Position numbers and translations under genes: made by a program
The notes under the pieces: generated by a model
Told to the model about the DNA's origin: nothing
Seen by the model: only the letters and a program-made list of their open reading frames with translations
The model's database searches: none
Shown here: positions 18,489 through 40,187 of the stretch, in pieces
Numbering within the stretch: the stretch's first letter is position 1
How the letters are laid out: the number at the start of each line of letters is the position of its first letter
Source of the DNA: an uncultured bacterium
GTDB lineage: Bacteria > Cyanobacteriota > Vampirovibrionia > Gastranaerophilales > Gastranaerophilaceae
Assembly (NCBI GenBank): GCA_902461945.1
Contig: CABPZQ010000001.1
Location: 114,004 to 178,003 of the forward strand
Direction of reading: 5' to 3'
DNA length: 64,000 bases

Positions 18489-18863
18489 TTATAAAGAAGC
18501 TTCTATAGAATTCAAGCTCTCCCTTAATTCTGCAGCTTGCTCATTATAATACTCAAGCCAGGTTTGCCCTGTTTTAGAATCTTTAACTGTATTTTCACAA
18601 ACTGCACGAATTCGCTTGGAATCAATATCATTCAACTCCAATTTTATCTGTTCTATTCTGCGAATTTTATTTTCTTCTTGTTTTAATAATTCATAATCCG
18701 GATTTTCAACAATACTACCATTCGCGTATGAGTATTTCAAAGGGTCATTACAAAAATCATTATATATATCTTCAAAAACCTCTACATTTAAAACCTCATC
18801 ATTTAAACAACGACATTGACCGGCACCATTAATTTCATTATTCTCTATATAAATATAATACAT
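18489..18863 (-). CDS. hypothetical protein (124 aa)
   Basis: ORF immediately downstream of 18866..19456. Coiled-coil-like C-terminus. Confidence 0.4.
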   Translation of the reverse strand: MYYIYIENNEINGAGQCRCLNDEVLNVEVFEDIYNDFCNDPLKYSYANGSIVENPDYELLKQEENKIRRIEQIKLELNDIDSKRIRAVCENTVKDSKTGQTWLEYYNEQAAELRESLNSIEASL

Positions 18864-18865
18864 AA

Positions 18866-19456
18866 TTACCTAACCTTTCTATATGCTGAAATCCTGACAG
18901 AACAACTATTTGCATAACTTGCAGCGTTGGTTTCATCTCCAACAAAAAGCCTTATCTTTCTATCTTTAGATATCGGAACTACACAATTACCCGAAGCAAT
19001 ATTATTTACACCAGAAACTCGAGTTACAGCCCGACACATATAAAGAGACCCACAAAGAGCGGAACTAAGACTCAATGATAGGCAATTATTTATGTGCGTA
19101 CCAGTTCTAATTATCGCACTAACTATTATTTCATATACATTTTCATCTTTTGGAAGCATTGAAGATAAATCAAAAGACTTATCATAAGAACTACTTAAAG
19201 TAGCCTCTCGAATGATAAATTCACCTTTTATAATCCATTTGCCGTCAAGTTCTGTTTTGTCAGCTTTTGTATCTAAAACTTTTTGACCTTCCGTGTCGAT
19301 ATTTGATAAGTCCTTATTTAATTTTTGAGTATTCAAATCCTCGATTTTTACATTCGACTTTTCTATTTCGTCTAAAACAGCAACAAAATTTGCATTAACT
19401 TCTTCCGCCTTTGCCTTTGCTCCGGGCACAAAAGAGTATGGAACACTTGATGTCAT
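18866..19456 (-). CDS. hypothetical protein (196 aa), possibly phage tail-fibre-like
   Basis: N-terminal AEEVNANFVAVLDEI resembles motifs remembered from tail-fibre N-termini. Weak. Confidence 0.4.
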   Translation of the reverse strand: MTSSVPYSFVPGAKAKAEEVNANFVAVLDEIEKSNVKIEDLNTQKLNKDLSNIDTEGQKVLDTKADKTELDGKWIIKGEFIIREATLSSSYDKSFDLSSMLPKDENVYEIIVSAIIRTGTHINNCLSLSLSSALCGSLYMCRAVTRVSGVNNIASGNCVVPISKDRKIRLFVGDETNAASYANSCSVRISAYRKVR

Positions 19457-19634: not shown

Positions 19635-20003
19635 TTAAGCAGATTTACCTTTGAATAAATTTACTACAGGTTCATAAGTATATTTAGCAATTGCTTCACC
19701 TGCAGTTGCAACATAATGCCCAACTTTTTGCATCAATGTAGCAGCCTCTTTATCAGCTTGAGATAAAGTTTTTATAGCATTAGGGAAAACTTTTGGTAAC
19801 GCAACAAGAGTTGCTGCAACTACTGCTAAAGTTGCCAGTGTTCCTACAACCTTTTTACCTGTTCCGGAAGATTTTTTTTCTTCTACAGGAGCCTGCTCAG
19901 CTTTTGGTACTGGGGAAGAAAATTTGCCAGGTCTTTCTAATATACTTGAAACATTATTCTGCTCACCACAAAAACGAACACTTGAAATAGGACTAACCAT
20001 CAT
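19635..20003 (-). CDS. hypothetical membrane protein (122 aa)
   Basis: One hydrophobic helix, VVGTLATLAVVAATLVAL. Confidence 0.4.
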   Translation of the reverse strand: MMVSPISSVRFCGEQNNVSSILERPGKFSSPVPKAEQAPVEEKKSSGTGKKVVGTLATLAVVAATLVALPKVFPNAIKTLSQADKEAATLMQKVGHYVATAGEAIAKYTYEPVVNLFKGKSA

Positions 20004-20173
20004 TTGGAAAACCTCCTTAACACTTTAATACACACTAATAATAAAACACTTAATAACTTTATTTTGACCAATTAATTTTATTTTGCAAACTATTGTTACA
20101 AAAATTTACAAACAATTTGGAATATTTTCAATTGTCGTGTCATCTATATACATGTAGAGGAGGAGAGTATAAA

Positions 20174-23100
20174 ATGGTTGGAAAGCAAGATACACTGATT
20201 TATATTGAACAGGAAAACAAAACTGAAGCAGAATTTATGTCTAGGAGCTTTGTTAACAGTACTATAAAAAACAGAGCATACATTAACGCACTTGGGGCCG
20301 AATTGGTTATGAAATATTTAGCTTCAGAGGGGATAGATATTTCTGACACTCACAACATGCATTCAATATCTAAAATCCTCGAAAAAATTGACATATCAGA
20401 CATCTTGTTGCCTAATATTCATATTGATGTAAGAGTCATCTTTGACGAAAACCAAATATTTATTCCAAAAACACATTTTCAACTGGAAATAACTCCTGAC
20501 ATTTATGTTGTACTTAAACTTGCAAAAGATTTCAGCCATGTAGAATTTTTAGGATACTTTGAACCGGATTCACTAAATTTAAAACTTTGCAACAATGATT
20601 ACTATTTCTTTGAAAAAGAAAAATTACATGCTCCATCTACATTAAAACAATTTATTAAAAATTTTACAGGGAACACATCCCGTGGACTCTCTCAAGATGA
20701 TATTTTGAGAGGAAGAGAATTATCTATTGCTATGGCTGACCATAATATTTCAGATTCTGAGCAAAAAGAATTAATTGAACTTTTACTATTAAGTAGCGAA
20801 TTAAGAGAAAGTGTTTTGGAATTTGATAACTTTGAAACTCTATCATACAGCGTCGGCTCAACGTTATCCAAAAACAATACGGAACAAACAAAATCAGCAG
20901 CAATAATTTTAGACCCAGAACAAGACACCTCTGAGCAAAATGAAGAACAGCAAAATAATCAGGAAGAACAAACAGGTAATACTGAAGAAAATATTGAGGA
21001 TTTAACAGATAATACTCTTGAAGAAATTGATTTTTCAAATACTCAGGATGACATAGTACTAGATGAAAGCTTTTTCGAGTTGACCGAACCAGAAACTGCT
21101 GAAAATCTATCAGGAAATAAAGCTGATACTGAACAACCTGAAGCAGAAGCTGAAAACATTTTGGATTTTGAACAAAAAGACTCAAGCGTTACAAATATCT
21201 CAGATATACAAAATCCACAAGAAGAGACCTTGCTGGAAATCGAAGATTTGGTAACAACAGAAGAAAATATTGAACCCCTTGAAGAATTAGAATTAAATAG
21301 TCAAGATTTAATTCTTCCAGAAGCCGAAACATTACAGCTTGATGAAAATATTCCTCAAGAAGAAAATACATTAGAAAAAACAGTTGGTGATGCCGTTCAA
21401 AAAGCACTGAAAAAATCCGAAGAAATATCCACACCTGCAAATGACGATAATATTGAGCAAGGCGCCTCAAAAGATGCAATAAAACTAGCAGGAGTTTCAG
21501 GTGACATTGTTAACGAATTACTCAACAAAAATATAGAAAGCCAACAAGAAGAACTTAATAAAATTGACTATTCACAAATATCAACAAATGCGACAGAAGT
21601 ACCTGAACACATAGCAGCCTACGATCTTTCATCTGCAAAAATCGAAATGGACGCACAGGCAGAAGCTTCCGGACAATTTGATACACCAAAAGATCTTTCT
21701 GATTTCAAAACAGTAGAAATAAAACAAACTATAGGCGAGGAAGAAACTTTTGTTCCTGAAACTATAGATTTAGAAAGCATGGAATCTGTTGAAACTGAAG
21801 ATTTCAACGAAAACACTGAAAGCATTGTAGATTTAGAACATTTATCAACGATAGATTCCCCTACAAAACCAGTAGACGACTTGGAAGAAAAACTACAAAA
21901 TAACAATTCTGATGAACATTTATCAGATATGAATTTTTCAAACATGTCTTCATTTACAATAAACGAAGATGGCTCATCTCCAATAGATGACATCGATATC
22001 AATTTTAATAATGATAACGATGAACATCTTGTTGATTTTGGACCAGCCTCCAATACCTTAATAATAGATGATACACCACAACAATACTATTCTTCATCTA
22101 CAGATGAATCTCTTGAAGCAGATTTAATGCTTGAAGATGGTTTCTCTACAGATGAAATTTTCGAACCGGAAACCAAAAAAGAAGAAGTTACTTTAGTAGA
22201 CGATACACCACAAGAAACTTCAAATAATACAAACGAAACAATCACAATGGAAGAACTTTCAATTGATGAGACTTTTGAAGATACAATGTCACTAGACGAT
22301 TCTAATATTTTGCTTGACGAAAATCTTTCGGGTGAAGAATTTGATTTGGCTACAGAAACAACAATTGAAGAACTTTCACCTTCTCTTGAAAATGATGAAT
22401 CATTAAATATACTGGCAGAAAACTTAGCTGAACCGATGTTTGAAGAACCTTTGCCTGAAAATGATATTATAATTAACGAAACAATAGAACCAAATAATAA
22501 GGCTGATATTGAATCAATAGAACTTCCTGCAGCTCAAATAGATACCGGTGATGAATTATCACCTGATATGCTGCTTGATAATGTAATCAATAACATTGAA
22601 ACAGATAAGAACATGACAGCTAATGAAACTGTCAGTGAAGAAATACAAACAAACATAAATGAAACAATAGAATTACCAGAAAGCACAATTCTTGAGGAAA
22701 CAAATTTTGAACAAATTCAATTACCGAACGAAGTTTCTGAAACCAGCACAACTCAAGAATCTGATATTATTCAAAATAATTCTCTAGAACTTGATAATCA
22801 GGATTGGTTAAACGATACAACCTATGATAACATTCCGGATGCTGAAATTCAAGCACAATCCGATATTGAAACAATGGAACCTGATAATATACTGGATGAA
22901 TTATCACCTGAAGAATTTATAACCGAACCTGAACCAAATAACGAAAAAATCTTTGCAGTAACAGAAAACTCTGTTACAATTAGTGATATGAACTTTACAC
23001 CGGGAGAAATTCCAATAGATATCAACAACAATGAACAACCTCAGCTTGACGGTCCTGAACAGCTTGAAAGCATATACGATACAGATAACTCGGTACCAGG

Positions 23101-23839
23101 TTCTGCATTATTACAAAATCCTGGCAGATTAGGCTCCGCAAATAGAGGAGGAGCAAAGATTGGCATGGGTATGGGACTAGGTATTATCGGAGTCATTCTT
23201 GCAATAGCAATTGTAGGCATAATTGGATTTTCAGTATCAAAAATGTTGAATAAACCAGCTGATGACACTCCACAACCAATTACAGATGACCCAATTCCTA
23301 CAAACACGGATAATGGAGTTGCAGATGTAAACACACTAAATGTGAATCCAGATAATGTTGTAAACATGGATAGCACAAACAATACACCTGCTCTTCCTGC
23401 AGCTAAACCTGCAAAACAAAAACCAGTAGTAACTTCGCAACAACCGACAACAGTTCAACAACCAGCCAGACAGCAAAAAGTAATGCCTGCAACCTCATTC
23501 ATCGAAATTAACAAACTGACTTGGGAAATACCTGATTATATTTCATACAACGAGCAATTTAAACAATACTTCCAAGCAGCCGGTAAAAGTTTAAAATTAT
23601 CTTTAAATAGCGATTTACTTCTGGCAACAGATTATGCATATTCAGATCAAATAAGAGTAACTGTTACTTTTGCTAAAGATGGCACGTTTAAAGATGCAAA
23701 AATCTTATTATCAAGTGGCTCAAATCAAATAGATAATATTGTGTTACAAACTGTTAACCAAACCTTAAGAGTCCTTAAAGCCCCTCATAGCGTAGGAAAT
23801 GACGAAAGCACCACAGTTATACTTAAAATTTATTTTTAA
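20174..23839 (+). CDS. giant acidic single-pass membrane protein with C-terminal TonB-C-like domain
   Basis: Start at MVGKQ with a GAGGAGGAG RBS. There is a structured N-domain of about 200 aa, then a D/E-rich low-complexity region of about 800 aa. It then has one TM helix (GIIGVILAIAIVGIIGF), a P/T/Q-rich linker and a C-terminal block VTVTFAKDGTFKDAKILLSSGSNQIDNIVLQTV. That block resembles the TonB C-terminal fold. Confidence 0.65.
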   Translation: MVGKQDTLIYIEQENKTEAEFMSRSFVNSTIKNRAYINALGAELVMKYLASEGIDISDTHNMHSISKILEKIDISDILLPNIHIDVRVIFDENQIFIPKTHFQLEITPDIYVVLKLAKDFSHVEFLGYFEPDSLNLKLCNNDYYFFEKEKLHAPSTLKQFIKNFTGNTSRGLSQDDILRGRELSIAMADHNISDSEQKELIELLLLSSELRESVLEFDNFETLSYSVGSTLSKNNTEQTKSAAIILDPEQDTSEQNEEQQNNQEEQTGNTEENIEDLTDNTLEEIDFSNTQDDIVLDESFFELTEPETAENLSGNKADTEQPEAEAENILDFEQKDSSVTNISDIQNPQEETLLEIEDLVTTEENIEPLEELELNSQDLILPEAETLQLDENIPQEENTLEKTVGDAVQKALKKSEEISTPANDDNIEQGASKDAIKLAGVSGDIVNELLNKNIESQQEELNKIDYSQISTNATEVPEHIAAYDLSSAKIEMDAQAEASGQFDTPKDLSDFKTVEIKQTIGEEETFVPETIDLESMESVETEDFNENTESIVDLEHLSTIDSPTKPVDDLEEKLQNNNSDEHLSDMNFSNMSSFTINEDGSSPIDDIDINFNNDNDEHLVDFGPASNTLIIDDTPQQYYSSSTDESLEADLMLEDGFSTDEIFEPETKKEEVTLVDDTPQETSNNTNETITMEELSIDETFEDTMSLDDSNILLDENLSGEEFDLATETTIEELSPSLENDESLNILAENLAEPMFEEPLPENDIIINETIEPNNKADIESIELPAAQIDTGDELSPDMLLDNVINNIETDKNMTANETVSEEIQTNINETIELPESTILEETNFEQIQLPNEVSETSTTQESDIIQNNSLELDNQDWLNDTTYDNIPDAEIQAQSDIETMEPDNILDELSPEEFITEPEPNNEKIFAVTENSVTISDMNFTPGEIPIDINNNEQPQLDGPEQLESIYDTDNSVPGSALLQNPGRLGSANRGGAKIGMGMGLGIIGVILAIAIVGIIGFSVSKMLNKPADDTPQPITDDPIPTNTDNGVADVNTLNVNPDNVVNMDSTNNTPALPAAKPAKQKPVVTSQQPTTVQQPARQQKVMPATSFIEINKLTWEIPDYISYNEQFKQYFQAAGKSLKLSLNSDLLLATDYAYSDQIRVTVTFAKDGTFKDAKILLSSGSNQIDNIVLQTVNQTLRVLKAPHSVGNDESTTVILKIYF

Positions 23840-23870
23840 GTATGCTATAATAATTCTATAGTAGAGGAAC

Positions 23871-24437
23871 TTGGGTGTGGAATTAACACAGGATAAGATT
23901 GATTTAATAAGTAAGATAATTAAAAACGACCGTAAATATCCAAATAATGAGGATTTGTACGACGATTTTTTCAATGAAACATGTAAACGTTCAGTTGCAA
24001 TCATTAATGCTGTTGATTCAGAAATAACACTTGAAGCTTACCTAAAACGTGTTGTTACAACATCAATTATCAATGTGCTAAAAGACTCCGGAAGATTAAG
24101 AAGAACTCGTTCCGGTTACATGTCAACAAAAGAAGTTCTGCTAGATAATCACAATAAAATAGATTACTCTAATGTGTCCGTTAGCTATACTGATATAAAA
24201 CTTCCGGATACCCCTGAAGATATTGTAATTCAAAAAGAAATTCTTGAATTTGTTTCAAATACAATTAAAAATATCGATAAAGAAGAACCGGAAAAAGACT
24301 ATTTACATATCTACACTTTGCGTTATGATAAAGGCATGACTCAGAAAGAAATTTCTGAAGAGCTTGGCATCTCTCAATCTGAAATCTCTAAAAGATTATA
24401 TAAATTGATGGATAAAGTTAAAGATATTATTGGCTAA
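23871..24437 (+). CDS. sigma-70 family RNA polymerase sigma factor (ECF-like size)
   Basis: C-terminal region-4 HTH LRYDKGMTQKEISEELGISQSEISKRLYKLMDK. The start is TTG at 23871 or GTG at 23877, with an AGGA 9 nt upstream of the GTG. Confidence 0.6.
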   Translation: MGVELTQDKIDLISKIIKNDRKYPNNEDLYDDFFNETCKRSVAIINAVDSEITLEAYLKRVVTTSIINVLKDSGRLRRTRSGYMSTKEVLLDNHNKIDYSNVSVSYTDIKLPDTPEDIVIQKEILEFVSNTIKNIDKEEPEKDYLHIYTLRYDKGMTQKEISEELGISQSEISKRLYKLMDKVKDIIG

Positions 24438-24445
24438 TTTTTAAT

Positions 24446-27409
24446 ATGAAATGTCCTGTTTGTAAAAAAAATATTTCAAAATCGGTATTAAAATGTCCTT
24501 ATTGCAAAACCAGAGTAGGTTTGTTATGCAGCAACTGCAATACAATCAATTCTGTTGGCAATTTTGTCTGCAAAAAATGCGGAGAAGAATTGTTAAAAAT
24601 TTGTCCACACTGTAAAAGTGTAAATTTTCCAGGTGCAGCCAAATGCAGAAAATGCGGTCTACAGTTTAATATCCCTAAGAACACCACTGAAGATAATACC
24701 CCTCAAAACCTGCTATACAAACCCAAACTGTACAATAGAGAGAAGGCTTTAGAGATTTTGACAGATGACCTGCTTGCCAAAGAAAAAAAAATATTTTCTA
24801 TAACCGGAGACAAAGGTATTGGCAAAAGCACATTGCTAACGAAAGCAATGGCAAAATTAAACAATTATAATTTTCAATGGTGTACGGGTAAATGCACCTC
24901 ACTGAGCCAGCTAAGTCCCGGCGGCGTAATTCAAGATATGCTGCTAAATCTGTTTAAACTGCCGAATTATTGTATTAATAATGACGAACTGAAAAAAGAT
25001 GCAGTTAAATTTTTTACAAATGAATTTAAATTCCTAAATCAAGACGAAATTCTGATATTTTTTAATTTCCTTTACAACTTTCAAGATGGAAATTATGAAG
25101 AGATTATAAATAATAAAAAACGCACTTATAATATTTTACTGCAAATTTTTGAGGCATTCACGCACACTGAAAAATTTATCTACGTAATTGACAATTTTGA
25201 TTTTATAGACGGCTTTTCTATCGAATTTTTCACACATTTCATGCAAAAAAATTCCAATTGGAATAATTTAAAATTTATTGCAATATACAATGAACACAAA
25301 CCAATAAATAATTTTTTCAATTTTGAAGATAAAGATACAAAAGCGTATGTTGACATAAACCTCGCACCGCTTACGATAAAAGAACTTGAACACAGTATAA
25401 AACTCACAGGTGAGGCTGGAACTTACGTTACAGAAAGAGAAAAAGAAGTCATTTTTGCAAAAAGTAATGGGAATCCTGCATTTGTTGAACAGGCAATCAG
25501 CTACTCATTTGATTGTCAAATAGCAGACAAAGCGTTTTTACTACCTAATAATTTTGAATTTCTGATAAAAGAAAGACTAGAAACTCTAAAAAAAATAAAC
25601 AATGCAGCATACAAACTGCTTAGCGGGGCTGCAATTTTAGGAGATAAACTTAATCTGGCTCTTTTAAAAGAAATTTTTGGCTACAAGAATCAAGAATTTA
25701 ACGACATAATTTCATATCTTGTGAAATCAAGCTTTGTAAAACCGTACAGCGAAATTTATTATGAATTCAACAATCTTTTATTATGGGAAACAGTATTAAA
25801 AAATATAACTCATAATATAGAATTTGAAGAACTTAATATAAAAATAGGCAAAGCTTTGAGTATTTATACGCTTAACACCAATGCAACAATGGCTATGCTA
25901 GCTCATAATTTAAAAGAAAACCGTATGGCATTTGATATCTGGACTAAAACAACAAGGCTGGCTTCATACATTGGAGATATAAACTTATATGTAATCTCGC
26001 AAAAACAGTGCCTTGCACTCCTGAATGAATTTAATGAAAACGAAACATTAAATATCCGATATAACATTAGCGAAAGGCTTGGTAAATTGTTAACAGAATA
26101 TGATCCGGAAGAAGCTCTGGAATATTTACCTGATGCAATTTCTCATGCCAAATCAAATAACGACGAAACGAAAGAAATAGAACTGTTAGGATATTTAGCA
26201 CTATGCTGCAAAAAAACGGGTAACTATTTTGGTGACGTAGAATGCGTTGACAATGTTCTAAACAAAATGAAACCAAATCAGGAACTTGAAACAGCAATGA
26301 TAAAAAGTACAAAAATACCATCATTGCTCAATATAGGTAATTGCGGAGAAGTAATAAACCTTATAGACAACGATATTTTACCTATTCTGGATTCATATTT
26401 AACAAAACCACGTTTAAATAAATCACTTCCTCTTGGTTTATTATATGAAACCTGGCTTGAAGTTTACCTTTCTTTAGGAACAGCTCTTGCACTACAAGGA
26501 AATGATAGAGCTTTCACAATCTTAAATAATCTATTTGATATCATTGATAAACAAAAAATTAATGATAAAGCTTTAGTTTGCAAAGCCAAATTAATACTGG
26601 CATATGCAAATACAATGAAGGGCAATTTCAGAACATCAGAAAATATACTCCAAGGTTTGAGTAACCTTTTGGAAGCTGATGAAAATTGGATTAGCCCTGA
26701 AATAATTTCAAAATACAATCTAACAAACATAATTAATAAATTTCTGGAAAAGAAATACGACAATTTACAGCAAATACTATCAGATGCCGTAATTTTTGCA
26801 AATGATACAGGAGATAATTTTACTAAAAATATCTTAAAACTTTTACTTGGTAAAATGTTCAAGGATAACAAACAGGCAAAACATGCTGTTGAAATTTATA
26901 ATGAACAAATAACATATTTTGCTAAAGAAAAAATAGCACTGGGTGCATTACTTTCGTGGTATTTAATAGCAGAGGCTACAATGGTTACTGAATCACCAAA
27001 AAATGCTATTGAAATTGCTTCTCAAGCATTGGAAATTGCCCAAAATCCGCAAATCAATAATACCTATTTTATTGTTTTATTAAAAACTCTTATAGCAAAA
27101 GCGTATATAGAAATTTCAGATTACGAAACAGCTAAAATAAACATTGAATCCGCAATAATTTTAGCAAAAAAATATAGCCAGAATGATTTACTCTCACGAG
27201 TATATTTATTGTATGGCAAATATTATCAAGAACTCGGCACTGTGCAGTCGCCAAAACAGAATGAATATCTTAAAGCATCTGCAAAAATGTATGAACAAGC
27301 AATGGATATCGTTGGAGAAAAAACTCGAAATATATATGTAAAAAATCAAATCGAAGAACAGAAAAAAATCCTCATATCATATTGCGATTTAAACGGATTT
27401 AATAAATAA
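24446..27409 (+). CDS. zinc-ribbon / P-loop NTPase (STAND-like) / TPR-like repeat protein
   Basis: There are three CxxC...CxxC zinc ribbons in the first 70 aa, a Walker A (GDKGIGKST) and a Walker B (FIYVIDNFD). A long helical repeat C-terminus follows. It starts 8 bp after the sigma factor. Confidence 0.7.
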   Translation: MKCPVCKKNISKSVLKCPYCKTRVGLLCSNCNTINSVGNFVCKKCGEELLKICPHCKSVNFPGAAKCRKCGLQFNIPKNTTEDNTPQNLLYKPKLYNREKALEILTDDLLAKEKKIFSITGDKGIGKSTLLTKAMAKLNNYNFQWCTGKCTSLSQLSPGGVIQDMLLNLFKLPNYCINNDELKKDAVKFFTNEFKFLNQDEILIFFNFLYNFQDGNYEEIINNKKRTYNILLQIFEAFTHTEKFIYVIDNFDFIDGFSIEFFTHFMQKNSNWNNLKFIAIYNEHKPINNFFNFEDKDTKAYVDINLAPLTIKELEHSIKLTGEAGTYVTEREKEVIFAKSNGNPAFVEQAISYSFDCQIADKAFLLPNNFEFLIKERLETLKKINNAAYKLLSGAAILGDKLNLALLKEIFGYKNQEFNDIISYLVKSSFVKPYSEIYYEFNNLLLWETVLKNITHNIEFEELNIKIGKALSIYTLNTNATMAMLAHNLKENRMAFDIWTKTTRLASYIGDINLYVISQKQCLALLNEFNENETLNIRYNISERLGKLLTEYDPEEALEYLPDAISHAKSNNDETKEIELLGYLALCCKKTGNYFGDVECVDNVLNKMKPNQELETAMIKSTKIPSLLNIGNCGEVINLIDNDILPILDSYLTKPRLNKSLPLGLLYETWLEVYLSLGTALALQGNDRAFTILNNLFDIIDKQKINDKALVCKAKLILAYANTMKGNFRTSENILQGLSNLLEADENWISPEIISKYNLTNIINKFLEKKYDNLQQILSDAVIFANDTGDNFTKNILKLLLGKMFKDNKQAKHAVEIYNEQITYFAKEKIALGALLSWYLIAEATMVTESPKNAIEIASQALEIAQNPQINNTYFIVLLKTLIAKAYIEISDYETAKINIESAIILAKKYSQNDLLSRVYLLYGKYYQELGTVQSPKQNEYLKASAKMYEQAMDIVGEKTRNIYVKNQIEEQKKILISYCDLNGFNK

Positions 27410-27446
27410 AGAGAGTTTAGTAAAAAACTCTCTTTATTTATTTTTG
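27408..27446 (+). terminator. rho-independent terminator
   Basis: aaagagagttt-agtaaa-aaactctcttt, then a T-rich tract. Confidence 0.65.
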
Positions 27447-35693: not shown

Positions 35694-38600
35694 TTAATCT
35701 TTAATCCAACGGAAACTCTTTACATAATTATTTCCATTAATATCACCATAAATTTCAGCCTTAAAAACTCTCAACGTATTATTTTTATCAAAATTAGGTA
35801 TTTTATTTATATTACTTGTAGATTTTGGATTAATTTCATTGATACTAATTCCAGGAATTGCGCTAAATAACCTGTTCAACGAAGCATTACCTATTCGGCC
35901 AAGTAATGTTGAGAAATTTTTAGAAAGACTTCCATAAACTTCCATGTCTGCAACAAGTGTTGCTATATTATAACTACCAGTCAAATACATATTCAAATCT
36001 TTACCTTTTGAAAATACCTGAATATCATTTGCAATACCATCTTTAATCTTAATTGAACCACTTATACTCTGGAAATTCCCTGTTTTTAACGGAGTAATCA
36101 AATCTATAATCCCATTAATTGAAAGCCCGGTAATTCCACCTGTTATCAGGTTACCAGCTTTTAACAAATATTCAAGAGAACCAAGTTTCGGCATTCTGCC
36201 ATCTGCAACCGTAAAATTACCATTTCCGGACAATGTATTTATACAATCTACACTTGTAACACCTTTACAGGCAACACTCATTTCGCCTGTAACCAAACCA
36301 TACATCTGCCCAGGCATATCAAAGAAATTTTCACCTATAATAGAAGCATCGGCATTTTTAATATGCATTTCACCATAGCCATTCTGTGACGATAGATTAT
36401 AGCTTAATCGTCCATCAACAGTCCCATTTGCCAGATTAAAACGATATTTATTAATATTAAATATATGATCGGCTCCTAACGATATATCTGATTTGAAATT
36501 AGTTGCATTAGCTTTCTTTATCAAAATTTTATCAGCATTCACTTCCGCGTGTTTAATGATAAATTGTTCCGGAGTAACCGGCATAGAACCGTTCGCTTTG
36601 ATATGATTTGTTCTTGTGTAATCTGCATCAAAATCATTCAATGCATTTGATATAACATTCAAATCTAAAACATCCATCTGAACATTAACATCATCAATAA
36701 CATATGGAGGTTCTGTTTTATTCAAAATCTTAGCAAACATAATAATATCATTTGTTAAGATAACCCCTTTTGATTTCAAATAAATAAAATCATTCTTAAA
36801 ATCTACGCTAATATCACGAATTGTAGAATCAAGTAATGGAATATCAACACTTGTGACATTTAAATTTCCTAATATTTTTGGCGCTAAAGAAGTTCCATTT
36901 ATTATCACATCAGATGTAAACACACCCTGTTTTATTGTGGGTTTCTTCATTAAAATATTGAAAATCTTAGCATTTGTAGGCTGATTAGTCGTAATTTTTA
37001 AATTTTTAAAACCTAGAACATTATCCTTCAAAAGCATTACTTCCCCAGAGGCGTTAAGCTGATTCTGCACAGAGGCTCTTTTGTTTTGAGATGTAATTGT
37101 TTGGTTATATCTTAAATAATTCAATTTAATCTTATTAGGATACAATACAACATCCGAAATCAAAGATACCGGATTTGTCGTCATCCCTTCTGAACTGATT
37201 GTTCCTGTCGGGGCTCCTGCAAGAGTTGCACCCATATAATAAATAGAAGAATTTTCTCCAATATTTAAATTTGATCTAATTCCAAGACGATTCAATGTTC
37301 CTCTAAGATGAGCATTAAAATTCACATCTCCTTTTAGTTTTACAGGATAAACAGATTTCGAATTCAAAAATCTATCAAAAAACACTTGAGTAGGTTTTGC
37401 ACTTACAAACAAATGCAAATTCGGTTTTGTATAGATATCTGAAACACTCCCATCAATAAACACTGGCATTGAACTGACTTTTGTATTTACACGTTCTAAA
37501 TAAAGTTCATTCCCTCGAACTTTTGCCTGACCATTCAAAATTCTTACAAGAGTATTATACGGTTTGTAAACAAAACTTATATTTGCCAAATTAGTATTTG
37601 CCCAAATTTTGCCATTATGAATATGACCATTGATATTTGTTTTACCTCTAATATCAGATATCAATGCCATTTGTTGTTCTAATTCTTTTGGGAGCTTCAT
37701 TTGTGTTTTTACGACATTAAGAACACTTACATCAAAATTTTTAAAATTAAAGACAGCATTCGAAATATTCATTTTATCGTAAATATCTGTAAGAGTTAAA
37801 GAAAGTGTATATGGATTATTATTAAACAATCCTGATAACTGTGATGTCTTAAGCTCCCCTTTTCTAATTGTAAATGTTCCGCCATTAATTTTTATAGGAT
37901 TTGATGAAGCTCTGTTTGATAAGAATTTTCCATCTACAAGAACATTATTATAATCAAGTTTTCCAGCTTCGGCAACTCCCTTATAATGTCCGGTAAAAGC
38001 AACATCTATCTTGCCCACTTCTTTTTGATAAGGCAAATTCATCTTTGGATACAACAAATCATTACAATCCCCTATTGCAAACCTATCAGATTTAGCAGTT
38101 AAATCAATCTGAGAATTTGACCCTGTACCTTTTACAAAAATTTTAGAACCTCTAACATAACCGTTTATATCATAATCTGAATCGTATTGATTAAAATTAA
38201 CTACTCCATTTACCCTGGTAAATGGCAAGTAGGTATCCTGCATCACAGTTGTCGCGTTATGAAGAGTTATTGTTCCTTTAGCAAATAAATCTTTGTTAAA
38301 TTCAATAGTTTCAGCATTTTTTGCATTACCGTAAATATTTAGAAATACATCAGCAACACCACGAGGATTAGTAAAAGGTGCAACAACTTTTTGAATATCT
38401 ACAAGGATTGGAGAAGTATTAATTACTTTTATCAACTGAGGAATATTCTGACCTTTTGAAGTAACAAGAACATTCAACTTTCCTAAAACAGAACAATCAC
38501 CCTTTATTTCAACAGGTTTACCATTTATTGTTGCATGATAACTTTTAAAAGTCGTTTGCGTATCATTAAAAATAACTTCACCTGAACCATTTTTTAAAAC

Positions 38601-40187
38601 TAAATTGTGAATATCATTAAATGAGGCCGTTACATTTCTAAAATGAATTTCGCCCCAAATATGCGGATCTACCTTTTTACCGGCAGAACGGAGCTTGATA
38701 CCTCCAAGCCCTGCCACTTTTAAAATTGGTACCGGACCGAGTTGAAACTTCAAAATTTCATGCAATGGATTTAAAACTTCCTGCGCCGGAGCAAGTGATA
38801 CTGAATCGGTACTTTCTATTTGCAGCTCCGAATATTTTGAACCATCAATAAGAACCATACCTTTAACACTTACCGATTGATCCTTGCTTGTTGGAACATA
38901 TACATCAAGATTCATTTTTTTTCCAACAAAATTTAAATCAATATTCGCATTTGCAGGAGCGCCTTTTATTGGGTGAATTAAATATCCGTCTCGTATTTTA
39001 ACAAAACCGGTTACAAATGGTCTATTGGCAACACCTTTAAATTTAATTTTTCCCTCACCACTGCCATAAAATACATATTTTTTCAATTTATACAAGTTAA
39101 ACTCAGGAATAAGAGTTTCTGTTCCTGGTAAAAGAGAGCAAATCTCATCCAATCTCGAAGTTTTAGCAGCAACACTCAAATCAAGATACGGATATTTTTG
39201 TCCCAGTTTATATATACTGCCGTCAACAGATGCATATATATTTTTTGAAGTTATAGTTGAATTTTTAAAATTAACACCGTTTTCAACTGTAGTAAAATTA
39301 ATCTTTGCAGTTAAATCATCTTTATATATTATTGAAGCTGCTTTATCTTTACCAAGAATTTCAAGATTCTTTGTTGAAACTTCTGCTATAACCCTTTTAT
39401 GCCCAAAACTATTATCTTCAGTTGTTGCAGAAAAATTCACAGTACCATTTAAATCTTTAAGTTGGTCTTTTGATAAAATTCTGGCATACTCTGCAATAGA
39501 AGAAATATCAAAATCCTCGATTTTAGCATTTATTTTCAATTTATCTTCACTAAATTGATTGATAGGCAAATTAATTTCAACATCGGCAAAATAATCAGTA
39601 GCTTTATCTTGAACTTTTAAAACACCTTTTGTTCCAAACTTTAATTGTTTATTTTGAACAAATTTGCCATGCTCAAAATATTCTCCATTTACTGTTAATT
39701 TTTGCCCATTAAGCTTATCATCCAACAAAACATTATATGCTCCCAGGTTCAAATCCATTTTTTCTAAAGTAAAATCTTGTTTTGCATTAACTTGCAACGG
39801 ATATTCGCCAAGCTGGAATTTACCCTCTTTTGACAATACAAAATAAATATCTTCTTTTGTTGCAGACACTTTTGATATTTCAACTTTTTTAAATAGCAAA
39901 GGAAATATTTTTACCTTAAATCTAGGATTTTCAATAGAAAGAGCCTTAGAGTTATCTTCATTTAAAATAGAAAAATTATCTGTTTTTATCCATACTGAAG
40001 GAAACATACCCATAGAAAGCTCAGGATTTCCAATATCAACAATATATCCTGAATTTTCATATATTTTATTTTCGATAAAATTCTTATGGGCTTTTATATT
40101 AACAACAGCAGGAATTCCCCACGTATAAAACCCGCAAGTTAACAATAAAATTCCCGCTGCTGTTACAATTTTCCATTTTTTCTTCAT
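35694..40187 (-). CDS. AsmA/TamB-like giant N-terminally anchored protein
   Basis: 1497 aa. N-terminal TM anchor (IVTAAGILLLTCGFYTWGIP), then a long predicted beta-rich body typical of AsmA/TamB-like proteins. Confidence 0.5.
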   Translation of the reverse strand: MKKKWKIVTAAGILLLTCGFYTWGIPAVVNIKAHKNFIENKIYENSGYIVDIGNPELSMGMFPSVWIKTDNFSILNEDNSKALSIENPRFKVKIFPLLFKKVEISKVSATKEDIYFVLSKEGKFQLGEYPLQVNAKQDFTLEKMDLNLGAYNVLLDDKLNGQKLTVNGEYFEHGKFVQNKQLKFGTKGVLKVQDKATDYFADVEINLPINQFSEDKLKINAKIEDFDISSIAEYARILSKDQLKDLNGTVNFSATTEDNSFGHKRVIAEVSTKNLEILGKDKAASIIYKDDLTAKINFTTVENGVNFKNSTITSKNIYASVDGSIYKLGQKYPYLDLSVAAKTSRLDEICSLLPGTETLIPEFNLYKLKKYVFYGSGEGKIKFKGVANRPFVTGFVKIRDGYLIHPIKGAPANANIDLNFVGKKMNLDVYVPTSKDQSVSVKGMVLIDGSKYSELQIESTDSVSLAPAQEVLNPLHEILKFQLGPVPILKVAGLGGIKLRSAGKKVDPHIWGEIHFRNVTASFNDIHNLVLKNGSGEVIFNDTQTTFKSYHATINGKPVEIKGDCSVLGKLNVLVTSKGQNIPQLIKVINTSPILVDIQKVVAPFTNPRGVADVFLNIYGNAKNAETIEFNKDLFAKGTITLHNATTVMQDTYLPFTRVNGVVNFNQYDSDYDINGYVRGSKIFVKGTGSNSQIDLTAKSDRFAIGDCNDLLYPKMNLPYQKEVGKIDVAFTGHYKGVAEAGKLDYNNVLVDGKFLSNRASSNPIKINGGTFTIRKGELKTSQLSGLFNNNPYTLSLTLTDIYDKMNISNAVFNFKNFDVSVLNVVKTQMKLPKELEQQMALISDIRGKTNINGHIHNGKIWANTNLANISFVYKPYNTLVRILNGQAKVRGNELYLERVNTKVSSMPVFIDGSVSDIYTKPNLHLFVSAKPTQVFFDRFLNSKSVYPVKLKGDVNFNAHLRGTLNRLGIRSNLNIGENSSIYYMGATLAGAPTGTISSEGMTTNPVSLISDVVLYPNKIKLNYLRYNQTITSQNKRASVQNQLNASGEVMLLKDNVLGFKNLKITTNQPTNAKIFNILMKKPTIKQGVFTSDVIINGTSLAPKILGNLNVTSVDIPLLDSTIRDISVDFKNDFIYLKSKGVILTNDIIMFAKILNKTEPPYVIDDVNVQMDVLDLNVISNALNDFDADYTRTNHIKANGSMPVTPEQFIIKHAEVNADKILIKKANATNFKSDISLGADHIFNINKYRFNLANGTVDGRLSYNLSSQNGYGEMHIKNADASIIGENFFDMPGQMYGLVTGEMSVACKGVTSVDCINTLSGNGNFTVADGRMPKLGSLEYLLKAGNLITGGITGLSINGIIDLITPLKTGNFQSISGSIKIKDGIANDIQVFSKGKDLNMYLTGSYNIATLVADMEVYGSLSKNFSTLLGRIGNASLNRLFSAIPGISINEINPKSTSNINKIPNFDKNNTLRVFKAEIYGDINGNNYVKSFRWIKD

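Follow-up and report, generated by a model that had tools for sequence, protein, structure and literature searches.

DUF1822 is a family of unknown function that is widespread in cyanobacteria. Its genes have been connected with transcription computationally, through the observation that genes for sigma factors of the extracytoplasmic function (ECF) type are linked with DUF1822 genes in cyanobacterial neighbourhoods (Kaur et al., 2021; PMC8195603). Among known systems, the closest to the one reported here include the class I anti-sigma/ECF pairs (RseA-sigmaE, RsiW-sigmaW, MucA-AlgU), the FecA-FecR-FecI system with TonB, and GltJ of the Agl-Glt gliding machinery of Myxococcus. Here we describe a gene cluster from an uncultured member of the Gastranaerophilales, located in a stretch of 64,000 nucleotides (nt) of contig CABPZQ010000001.1 that we call the window and whose position numbers are used throughout. 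The cluster comprises g1, encoding a giant membrane protein with a DUF1822-type head, g2, encoding a sigma factor, g3, encoding a zinc-ribbon protein of the STAND class (signal transduction ATPases with numerous domains), and the small divergent gene up122. This domain combination is unprecedented, in an unstudied lineage, and the cluster in all likelihood connects the cell envelope with transcription in a yet undescribed form.

The Gastranaerophilales are uncultured, non-photosynthetic relatives of cyanobacteria found in human and animal guts. We found no mention of sigma or anti-sigma factors in the literature on Melainabacteria and Gastranaerophilales, and the main text of the ECF re-classification paper has nothing on STAND partners. 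An earlier note, made from the letters of the window, had read g1, g2 and g3 as what looks like a signalling system from envelope to transcription, which it did not recognise as a described one. The domain combination is indeed without precedent. However, the module is not wholly undescribed, because the g1 head belongs to DUF1822 and the linkage of ECF sigma factors with DUF1822 had been noted previously (PMC8195603); this linkage, noted only computationally, is the only part of the system that was already known.

The arrangement of g1, g2 and g3 is conserved far beyond chance. When an alignment of the g1 head was run against one genome for each species, relatives were detected in 208 species-level genomes, of which the best 80 loci were taken for synteny. 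Nearly all of the 80 are labelled Gastranaerophilales, Melainabacteria or 'uncultured', besides a few evidently mislabelled bins. The three genes follow one another in the same order and on the same strand in all 75 loci of sufficient extent, separated by 33-42 nt between g1 and g2 and by 1-19 nt between g2 and g3. Both g1 (852-1382 amino acids, aa) and g3 (about 979-1004 aa) are single open reading frames (ORFs) in 74 of the 75, and g2 orthologues measure 184-191 aa. Flanking genes vary between clades, tyrS and two small ORFs lying upstream in the closer clade only. The joint conservation of the trio, on which the earlier note had made its reading depend, was borne out by the profiling. The identical g3 protein also occurs on nine gut-metagenome contigs with the gene order unchanged. 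With what appears to be a single locus in each genome of the 80 retrieved, with relatives in 208 species-level genomes, and with tyrS synteny in one clade, the cluster shows the pattern of a vertically inherited core module.

The conserved unit consists of four genes rather than three. While the trio of the earlier note is constant, the note had overlooked up122: in essentially all of the approximately 74 loci, an up122-like ORF lies on the opposite strand, 100-230 nt upstream of g1. The encoded protein has S.V.F.GE...PGKF/Y as its N-terminal motif, together with a basic KKKS patch and one transmembrane helix. No Pfam family matched it, and homologues were found by tblastn in the closer loci. 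We consider up122 probably a fourth member of the system.

Some genomes with the module carry unexpected labels, namely Methanomethylophilaceae archaeon, Muribaculaceae, Clostridium sp. CAG:768 and CAG:967, and Brachyspira sp. CAG:484 (loci L010, L034, L041, L057, L070 and L078). Their bins or names are probably misassigned, because gene content and synteny place these loci in the Gastranaerophilales.

The features of the cluster in the window, where the G+C content around the region is 29-37% (2-kb windows), are collected in Table 1. The start of g1 is an ATG with a GGAGGAG ribosome-binding site ahead. For g2, GTG 23877 is a more likely start than TTG 23871, because it is the choice of the gene caller on identical contigs (186 aa) and because GTGGAA at this position is unchanged across all orthologous loci; the version begun at TTG found no match in an exact-sequence database look-up. 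With the GTG start the g1-g2 gap is 37 nt rather than the 31 nt given before; the gap between g2 and g3 is 8 nt. The terminator predicted after the third gene was confirmed as a hairpin of -14 kcal/mol followed by a U-run (z = -4.86; 0 of 200 shuffles folded equally well), which a simple consensus scan had missed because its stem is A+T-rich. Another hairpin, at the g1 stop codon, was rejected as a terminator (z = -1.3, not conserved). The single transcription unit of the earlier note needs a correction, as a conserved extended -10 element sits in the g1-g2 gap. Because of it, the three genes probably do not form one simple transcription unit, and g2 and g3 are probably also transcribed separately.

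Table 1. Coordinates of the cluster and of its features in the window (res., residues; an empty cell means that no source is given).
Feature	Positions	Strand	Source
up122, small single-pass membrane protein, divergent from g1	19635..20003	-	ORF scan of loci
Candidate sigma-70-type promoter of up122: TTGCAA (20083-20088), 16 nt, CAAAAT (20061-20066)	20061..20088	-	
Conserved element TTGTTACAAAAnTTTACA, directly 5' of the -35-like box of g1	20093..20110	+	alignment of loci
ECF-like promoter motif of g1: TGGAATA (-35-like), N12, GTGTCATCT (-10-like)	20118..20145	+	alignment of loci
g1, ORF of 1221 aa	20174..23839	+	
g1 res. 1-165, DUF1822-type domain, putative PD-(D/E)xK (restriction-endonuclease-like) fold	20174..20668	+	
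g1 res. 166-236, predicted three-helix bundle with some likeness to class I anti-sigma domains	20669..20881	+	
g1 res. 237-985, polyanionic, apparently disordered cytoplasmic tether	20882..23128	+	composition
g1 res. about 996-1022, single Gly-rich transmembrane helix	23159..23239	+	hydropathy
g1 res. 1023-1105, periplasmic Pro/Thr/Asn/Gln-rich linker, and res. 1106-1221, TonB_C/TonB_2 domain	23240..23839	+	Pfam
Extended -10 TGcTATAAT between g1 and g2, immediately behind the g1 stop codon	23843..23851	+	alignment of loci
g2, two-domain ECF-like sigma-70-family factor of 186 aa, GTG start	23877..24437	+	TIGR02937, Pfam
g3, ORF of 987 aa	24446..27409	+	
g3 res. 1-75, three CxxC...CxxC zinc ribbons, basic (isoelectric point, pI, 9.4)	24446..24670	+	Pfam DZR, Zn_ribbon_3
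g3 res. 95-455, STAND nucleotide-binding oligomerisation module	24728..25810	+	Pfam, AlphaFold2 model
g3 res. 456-987, superhelix like tetratricopeptide repeats (TPRs), of the MalT domain III / RRNPP receptor kind	25811..27409	+	
Intrinsic terminator, 13-bp hairpin (27406-27437) then U-run, overlapping the g3 stop	27406..27445	+	folding vs shuffles

The domain anatomy of the proteins encoded by the cluster is shown by the analysis. Judged by profile matches, the head of g1 is a member of DUF1822. The Pfam model (PF08852) matched the N-terminal 270 aa of the window's g1 alone with an expectation value (E) of 4.8e-7 and 29.6 bits (cut-off 25), and it matched 15 of 15 aligned relatives with a best E of 2e-10, covering only model positions 1-140 of 370. 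Precomputed PF08852 matches exist on 32 of 35 homologues, and hhalign against the canonical DUF1822 protein of Tolypothrix gave a weak match (E 0.19). A profile of the g1 head matched only 770 clusters among 1.84 billion representatives, and the best 150 of the 770 all belong to the same family; tblastn of the head against plasmids returned no match. The nuclease fold of the head is reasonably supported. A Foldseek search of the Protein Data Bank (PDB) with the head model gave nothing significant, the weak matches being mostly to nucleases, and the polar residues E70, D73, D76, N81, H83, D85, R87, K99 and H101 are invariant. In one 254-aa database protein (P0030), a segment resembling sigma region 4 is joined to the middle of a g1-head domain. 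We rejected it as a natural sigma-DUF1822 fusion, as it looks like a chimeric assembly.

With the ECF, DUF1822 and EACC2-caspase (CHAT) systems, known from cyanobacteria and from other multicellular bacteria, the cluster shares a DUF1822 protein encoded together with an ECF-type sigma factor, and a large third signalling partner, which in those systems can hold a STAND module and TPRs (PMC8195603). It differs from them in that the constant EACC2 and caspase (CHAT) protein is absent from g3 and from the 10-kb surroundings, that g1 has a partial DUF1822 domain (about 140 of 370 positions) fused to the tether, the helix and TonB_C, and that it behaves as a core single-copy module of one order. 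The likeness raises the question of whether the cluster might be a conflict system, serving anti-invader defence or programmed death, in which g3 would sense the invader and the g1 head or the sigma regulon would be the effector. The shared DUF1822 and ECF sigma genes and the STAND modules in the variable partner of the described systems (PMC8195603) favour this idea, together with the PD-(D/E)xK fold of the g1 head and its cluster of invariant acidic, basic and His residues, and with the canonical cyanobacterial DUF1822 gene on a Tolypothrix plasmid that adjoins CHAT and CHAT-CHASE2 genes. However, no caspase/CHAT or EACC2-like domain was found in g3 or within 10 kb, g1 and g3 matched no PADLOC defence model (E <= 0.01), the sensor region of g3 is MalT/RRNPP-like rather than an Avs-type invader sensor, and the cluster is distributed like a core module passed on vertically instead of a mobile, patchy defence island. 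We thus consider a role in conflict quite unlikely. The Tolypothrix stretch (Tolypothrix sp. PCC 7712 plasmid NZ_CP063788, 54000-72000) encodes, in a row, a hypothetical protein (468 aa), the DUF1822 protein, a TPR-CHAT protein (1527 aa), a CHAT-CHASE2 protein and a second hypothetical protein (244 aa); no sigma gene is annotated or recognisable there, the gene table of the plasmid being possibly incomplete.

Behind the DUF1822-type domain, g1 continues with a predicted three-helix bundle that ends in the invariant motif LR..(L/I)EFDNFE. Its likeness to an anti-sigma domain is only moderately supported: anti-sigma Pfam families (zf-HC2, RseA_N and others) matched none of 38 orthologous bundle segments at E up to 10, and a profile search of the PDB with the bundle segment found no anti-sigma chain. 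The cluster departs from the class I anti-sigma/ECF pairs in several respects. The 165-aa DUF1822 domain precedes the bundle, a polyanionic tether of 400-900 aa lies between the bundle and the membrane, and g1 has neither a zinc motif nor sequence similarity to known anti-sigma families. Moreover, the putative anti-sigma gene comes first, the sigma gene has a housekeeping-type promoter of its own, and a STAND nucleoside triphosphatase (NTPase) is a constant third partner.

The tether contains 203 D/E against 23 K/R in 749 residues, corresponding to a net charge of about -180; over residues 237-1000 (764 residues), the D/E count is likewise 203. Among 73 orthologues, its length ranges from 398 to 921 aa, with 23-36% D+E and 0.6-5% K+R, and no conserved sequence islands were found in it. 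The helix that follows has a hydropathy peak of 2.7, with a comparable peak in all orthologues, and lies 200-227 aa from the C-terminus across them. Because g1 lacks a signal peptide and its helix comes only after some 995 residues, we place the head and the tether in the cytoplasm and the tail in the periplasm. The topology proposed in the earlier note, with one hydrophobic helix, a large acidic N-terminal side and a TonB-C-like end, is in agreement with these data. The periplasmic linker has 13 Pro in 83 residues. For the domain behind it, the window's g1 alone gave borderline matches (TonB_2, E 5e-5; TonB_C, E 6e-4), and both models matched 37 of 37 orthologues, with best E values of 9e-9 and 8e-7, respectively. 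TonB chains (5lw8, 6sly) are on top of its PDB sequence matches, weakly (E 0.1), and a C-terminal TonB_C-type tail is present in 135 of 144 family cluster representatives. By these profile matches, the g1 tail after its proline-rich spacer qualifies as a TonB_C domain, as had been proposed. Beyond this domain g1 is unlike TonB, which has a short cytoplasmic N-terminus and a conserved transmembrane anchor for coupling to ExbB-ExbD; in g1 about 995 residues precede the helix.

A TonB_C-type contact with the outer membrane and a route from the envelope to an ECF sigma factor are also what the cluster would have in common with FecA-FecR-FecI and TonB. Here, TonB_C is fused to the putative sigma regulator itself; no FecR domain was found in g1, the helix is without a conserved TonB-like motif, and neither a TonB-dependent transducer nor exbBD was found in the flanks.

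TonB proteins generally lack a cytoplasmic domain, and SjdR is a cyanobacterial TonB-like protein that has a cytoplasmic extension and a role in the cell wall (PMC8262864). GltJ resembles g1: it sits in the inner membrane, ends in a TonB_C-like periplasmic tail and has a long cytoplasmic region that includes a disordered linker; the GltJ zinc ribbon binds this linker in competition with a P-loop GTPase, and a P-loop NTPase acts as the switch (PMC11135422). In GltJ, however, zinc ribbon and linker belong to one chain, the small GTPase MglA serves as the switch, and the system is without a sigma factor, a DUF1822 head or a polyanionic tether. These proteins suggest that g1 might instead be mainly an adaptor of the TonB, GltJ or SjdR kind, one that spans the envelope in a structural or mechanical role for motility, cell wall or outer-membrane tethering and whose head and acidic region recruit partners such as g3, and that the sigma factor only controls the expression of the cluster and is not sequestered by g1. 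Such a role would fit the TonB_C tail and Pro-rich linker present in all orthologues, the moderate degree of the anti-sigma likeness, the cytoplasmic extension of SjdR (PMC8262864) and the build of GltJ, in which a TonB_C tail is combined with a 377-aa cytoplasmic ZnR-linker-GYF region under the control of a P-loop GTPase (PMC11135422). There is also a weak match of the NCBIfam GltJ equivalog model (NF033761), confined to the transmembrane-linker region of g1, but it scores 21.6 bits against a cut-off of 450, so that g1 is not a GltJ by this model. No motor genes (exbBD, tolQR or aglRQS-like) were found in the 10-kb flanks, and an adaptor would leave unexplained both the linkage of DUF1822 with sigma factors and the presence of a sigma gene 37 nt downstream, constant across species. 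We therefore regard this role as unlikely.

The product of g2 is a small sigma factor, as the earlier note had stated. TIGR02937 (sigma70-ECF) matched residues 23-185 with E 1.2e-20 and 73.8 bits (cut-off 42.9), and Sigma70_r4 and r4_2 matched above their Pfam thresholds. From these matches we classify g2 as a divergent sigma factor of the ECF-like, two-domain kind. Every specific NCBIfam sigma model fell far short of its cut-off. The earlier note would have been undermined if g2 were the orthologue of a known alternative sigma factor. Among the best 120 of 899 relatives there were only close orthologues, none of them named or characterised and all with generic names, and a profile of the g2 family matched the PDB weakly, in region 4 of SigF-type sigma factors only (E 5e-4).

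The N-terminus of g3 carries the three zinc ribbons, whose 12 Cys are invariant in 74 g3 sequences. DZR and AAA_16 are above the Pfam threshold for g3 itself, and its orthologues further match AAA_22, KAP_NTPase, NB-ARC, ATPase_2 and TPR_MalT (best 120 listed); the best 120 matches listed in the g3 search are close orthologues only. In the AlphaFold2 model of g3 (predicted local distance difference test, pLDDT, 84.7), a nucleotide-binding domain is followed by a helical domain, a winged helix and a region of all-alpha repeats; with the P-loop, these make up the architecture of a STAND protein. The zinc ribbons and long helical repeats recognised by the earlier note were thus recovered. Of the two Walker motifs named there, Walker A is conserved (GDKGIGKS, of the form GxxGxGKS), but Walker B is non-canonical: it reads hhhD249-N250 (25190-25195), invariant in 74 sequences, so that Asn replaces the second acidic residue and g3 lacks the canonical hhhhD(D/E). 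This D-N pair may point to a switch that binds nucleotide but hydrolyses little of it. Conservation in g3 is highest over residues 501-600, and the TPR-like region in which this stretch lies is the probable sensor. MalT is a STAND ATPase that activates transcription, and MalT/AfsR-type proteins carry a DNA-binding output where g3 has its basic N-terminal module. From the MalT and AfsR regulators and the RRNPP peptide receptors, g3 differs in that its output would be the N-terminal basic triple zinc ribbon instead of a LuxR or SARP DNA-binding domain, and in the D-N Walker B with its invariant Asn.

The intergenic DNA contains two promoter-like elements that are directly seen to be conserved. 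Upstream of g1, the layout TTGTTACAAAAnTTTACA-N7-TGGAATA-N12-GTGTCATCT is nearly unchanged in loci whose g1 heads are 53-60% identical to that of the window. GGAAT...GTC is the general shape of ECF promoters, and the spacing in the g1 promoter is about 2 nt shorter than is typical for them. The spacer between TGGAATA and GTGTCATCT is 12 nt in 82 of 83 near-motif matches (at most two mismatches) in the loci and the window; the one match with a 13-nt spacer is a chance site away from g1. Apart from the region upstream of g1, neither the window nor 1.5 Mb of related loci contain a second TGGAATA-N12-GTGTCATCT site. Among the 120 stretches listed in a scan of metagenomes, every match that shows the extended context is upstream of g1, and matches without this context were dismissed as chance. 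The second element, in the g1-g2 gap, reads TATGnTATAAT at the same place in nearly all of 74 orthologous loci; in the window, where a consensus scan also found it, TG occupies 23843-23844 and TATAAT 23846-23851. It is likely a housekeeping-type promoter of g2 and g3. As regards autoregulation, for which ECF promoters of the GGAAC...CGT/GTC type are the model, the ECF-like motif is invariant upstream of g1, and g2 itself sits behind the extended -10. Probably, g2 and g3 are made constitutively from their own promoter and g1 from a special, tightly conserved one. A ATTTTGAC block and a TTGCAA/TTGAAA block are also conserved in the intergenic alignment across loci, and might constitute the promoter of up122.

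The element TTGTTACAAAAnTTTACA is at least 90% conserved in 74 loci and, for a transcription start near 20150, would occupy about -57 to -40. We consider it a candidate activator site or UP element; its sequence has the partial dyad symmetry TTGT-N11-ACAA. An activator site here would allow g3 to be the master regulator, a MalT/AfsR-like activator whose zinc ribbons bind TTGTTACAAAAnTTTACA and which, together with g2, switches on g1 as a mere output. The invariance in 74 loci of an element that abuts the -35-like box, the STAND architecture with its MalT-like sensor, the pI of 9.4 of the N-terminal module and the separation of the g2-g3 promoter from that of g1 are all compatible with this arrangement. 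It would, however, leave the anti-sigma-like bundle and the linkage of DUF1822 with sigma factors unexplained, the A+T-rich element may instead be an UP element, and sequence-specific DNA binding by such zinc ribbons is a supposition. As a complete explanation, it seems to us very unlikely; it is compatible with the sigma/anti-sigma switch set out below, and may be part of it rather than an alternative.

We propose that the cluster encodes a lineage-wide sigma/anti-sigma switch that is anchored in the membrane, senses through its periplasmic TonB_C domain and has the STAND protein as co-regulator, a reading to which we give somewhat better than an even chance. The cytoplasmic head of g1, consisting of the nuclease-fold domain and the anti-sigma-like bundle, would hold g2, and the polyanionic tether would link this head to the single transmembrane helix. 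On the other side of the membrane, the TonB_C domain on its proline-rich linker would contact a partner in the outer membrane or the cell wall and act as the sensor. A change in the envelope would then release or destroy the hold that g1 has on g2; regulated proteolysis would be one means. The g3 protein, co-produced with the sigma factor from the extended -10 promoter, would operate as a STAND NTPase switch, its TPR region binding a cytoplasmic ligand or peptide as a second input. The basic zinc ribbons would be its output end, acting on the acidic tether or head of g1 and thereby freeing the sigma factor, or alternatively acting on the conserved element just upstream of the g1 promoter. If g2 reads the ECF-like promoter of g1, the circuit would contain negative feedback. 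Every contact between the proteins in this scheme, as well as the signal and the assignment of sigma factors to promoters, is what we infer.

Such a switch is favoured by the conservation of the cluster and of its two promoter-like elements, by the topology of g1, and by the identity of g2 as an ECF-type sigma factor and of g3 as a STAND protein with a MalT-like sensor. In addition, the zinc-ribbon module, with its pI of 9.4, contrasts in charge with the tether at about -180, zinc ribbon and disordered linker being binding partners in the TonB_C-tailed GltJ (PMC11135422), and the DUF1822 membership of the g1 head, combined with the published linkage of ECF sigma factors and DUF1822, provides a precedent. 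Several observations weigh against it. The putative anti-sigma domain is about 760 residues away from the transmembrane helix, whereas that of RseA, RsiW and other known anti-sigma factors of the membrane is close to it. Foldseek and sequence profiles fail to recover the anti-sigma similarity of the bundle. The helix of g1 is poorly conserved in sequence and without the TonB-like His motif, a Pfam scan revealed no exbB/exbD-like genes within 10 kb of the cluster, and the TonB_C assignment comes from sequence profiles of modest strength. Region 4 of g2 is nearer to SigF/SigB-type factors than to typical ECFs. Finally, as the g1 promoter motif occurs nowhere else in the 1.5 Mb of related DNA or in the metagenome sample, no regulon can be named, and the motif may belong to another regulator. 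The signalling from envelope to transcription that the earlier note had suggested is partly supported: the three checks that it had named as able to refute it came out in its favour, and the contact between g1 and g2 is conjectural.

A variant, which would amount to a new class of trans-envelope sigma control, places the regulation on the tether itself. The g3 protein would dock on this surface through its zinc ribbons, oligomerise on binding its ligand, and strip off or expose the sigma factor, while TonB_C would report the state of the envelope without a FecR-like or TonB-ExbBD relay. We hold this variant to be possible but improbable; if true, DUF1822 proteins would generally be sigma-factor regulators built on a nuclease fold.

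Outside the conserved unit, two small ORFs lie on the minus strand between tyrS and up122, at 18489-18863 (124 aa) and 18866-19456 (196 aa). They are without Pfam families and are conserved in the closer Gastranaerophilales clade only. Further along the window, the minus strand carries a 1497-aa ORF (35694-40187) that has no Pfam match at E <= 0.01 and is also called as a gene on an identical metagenome contig.

The cluster likely controls something central to the lineage, because it is intact in 75 of 75 informative loci, g1 relatives occur in 208 genomes, and its regulatory DNA is nearly invariant. A sigma/anti-sigma switch of the proposed kind would give a first functional handle on DUF1822. 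It would also exemplify an anti-sigma-like protein in which a head of nuclease fold and a TonB_C sensor are joined by a giant polyanionic tether, and whose partner is a STAND protein, a combination that would add to the known ways in which RNA polymerase is wired to the envelope. With its conserved promoters and domain boundaries, the system would be directly testable in a heterologous host.

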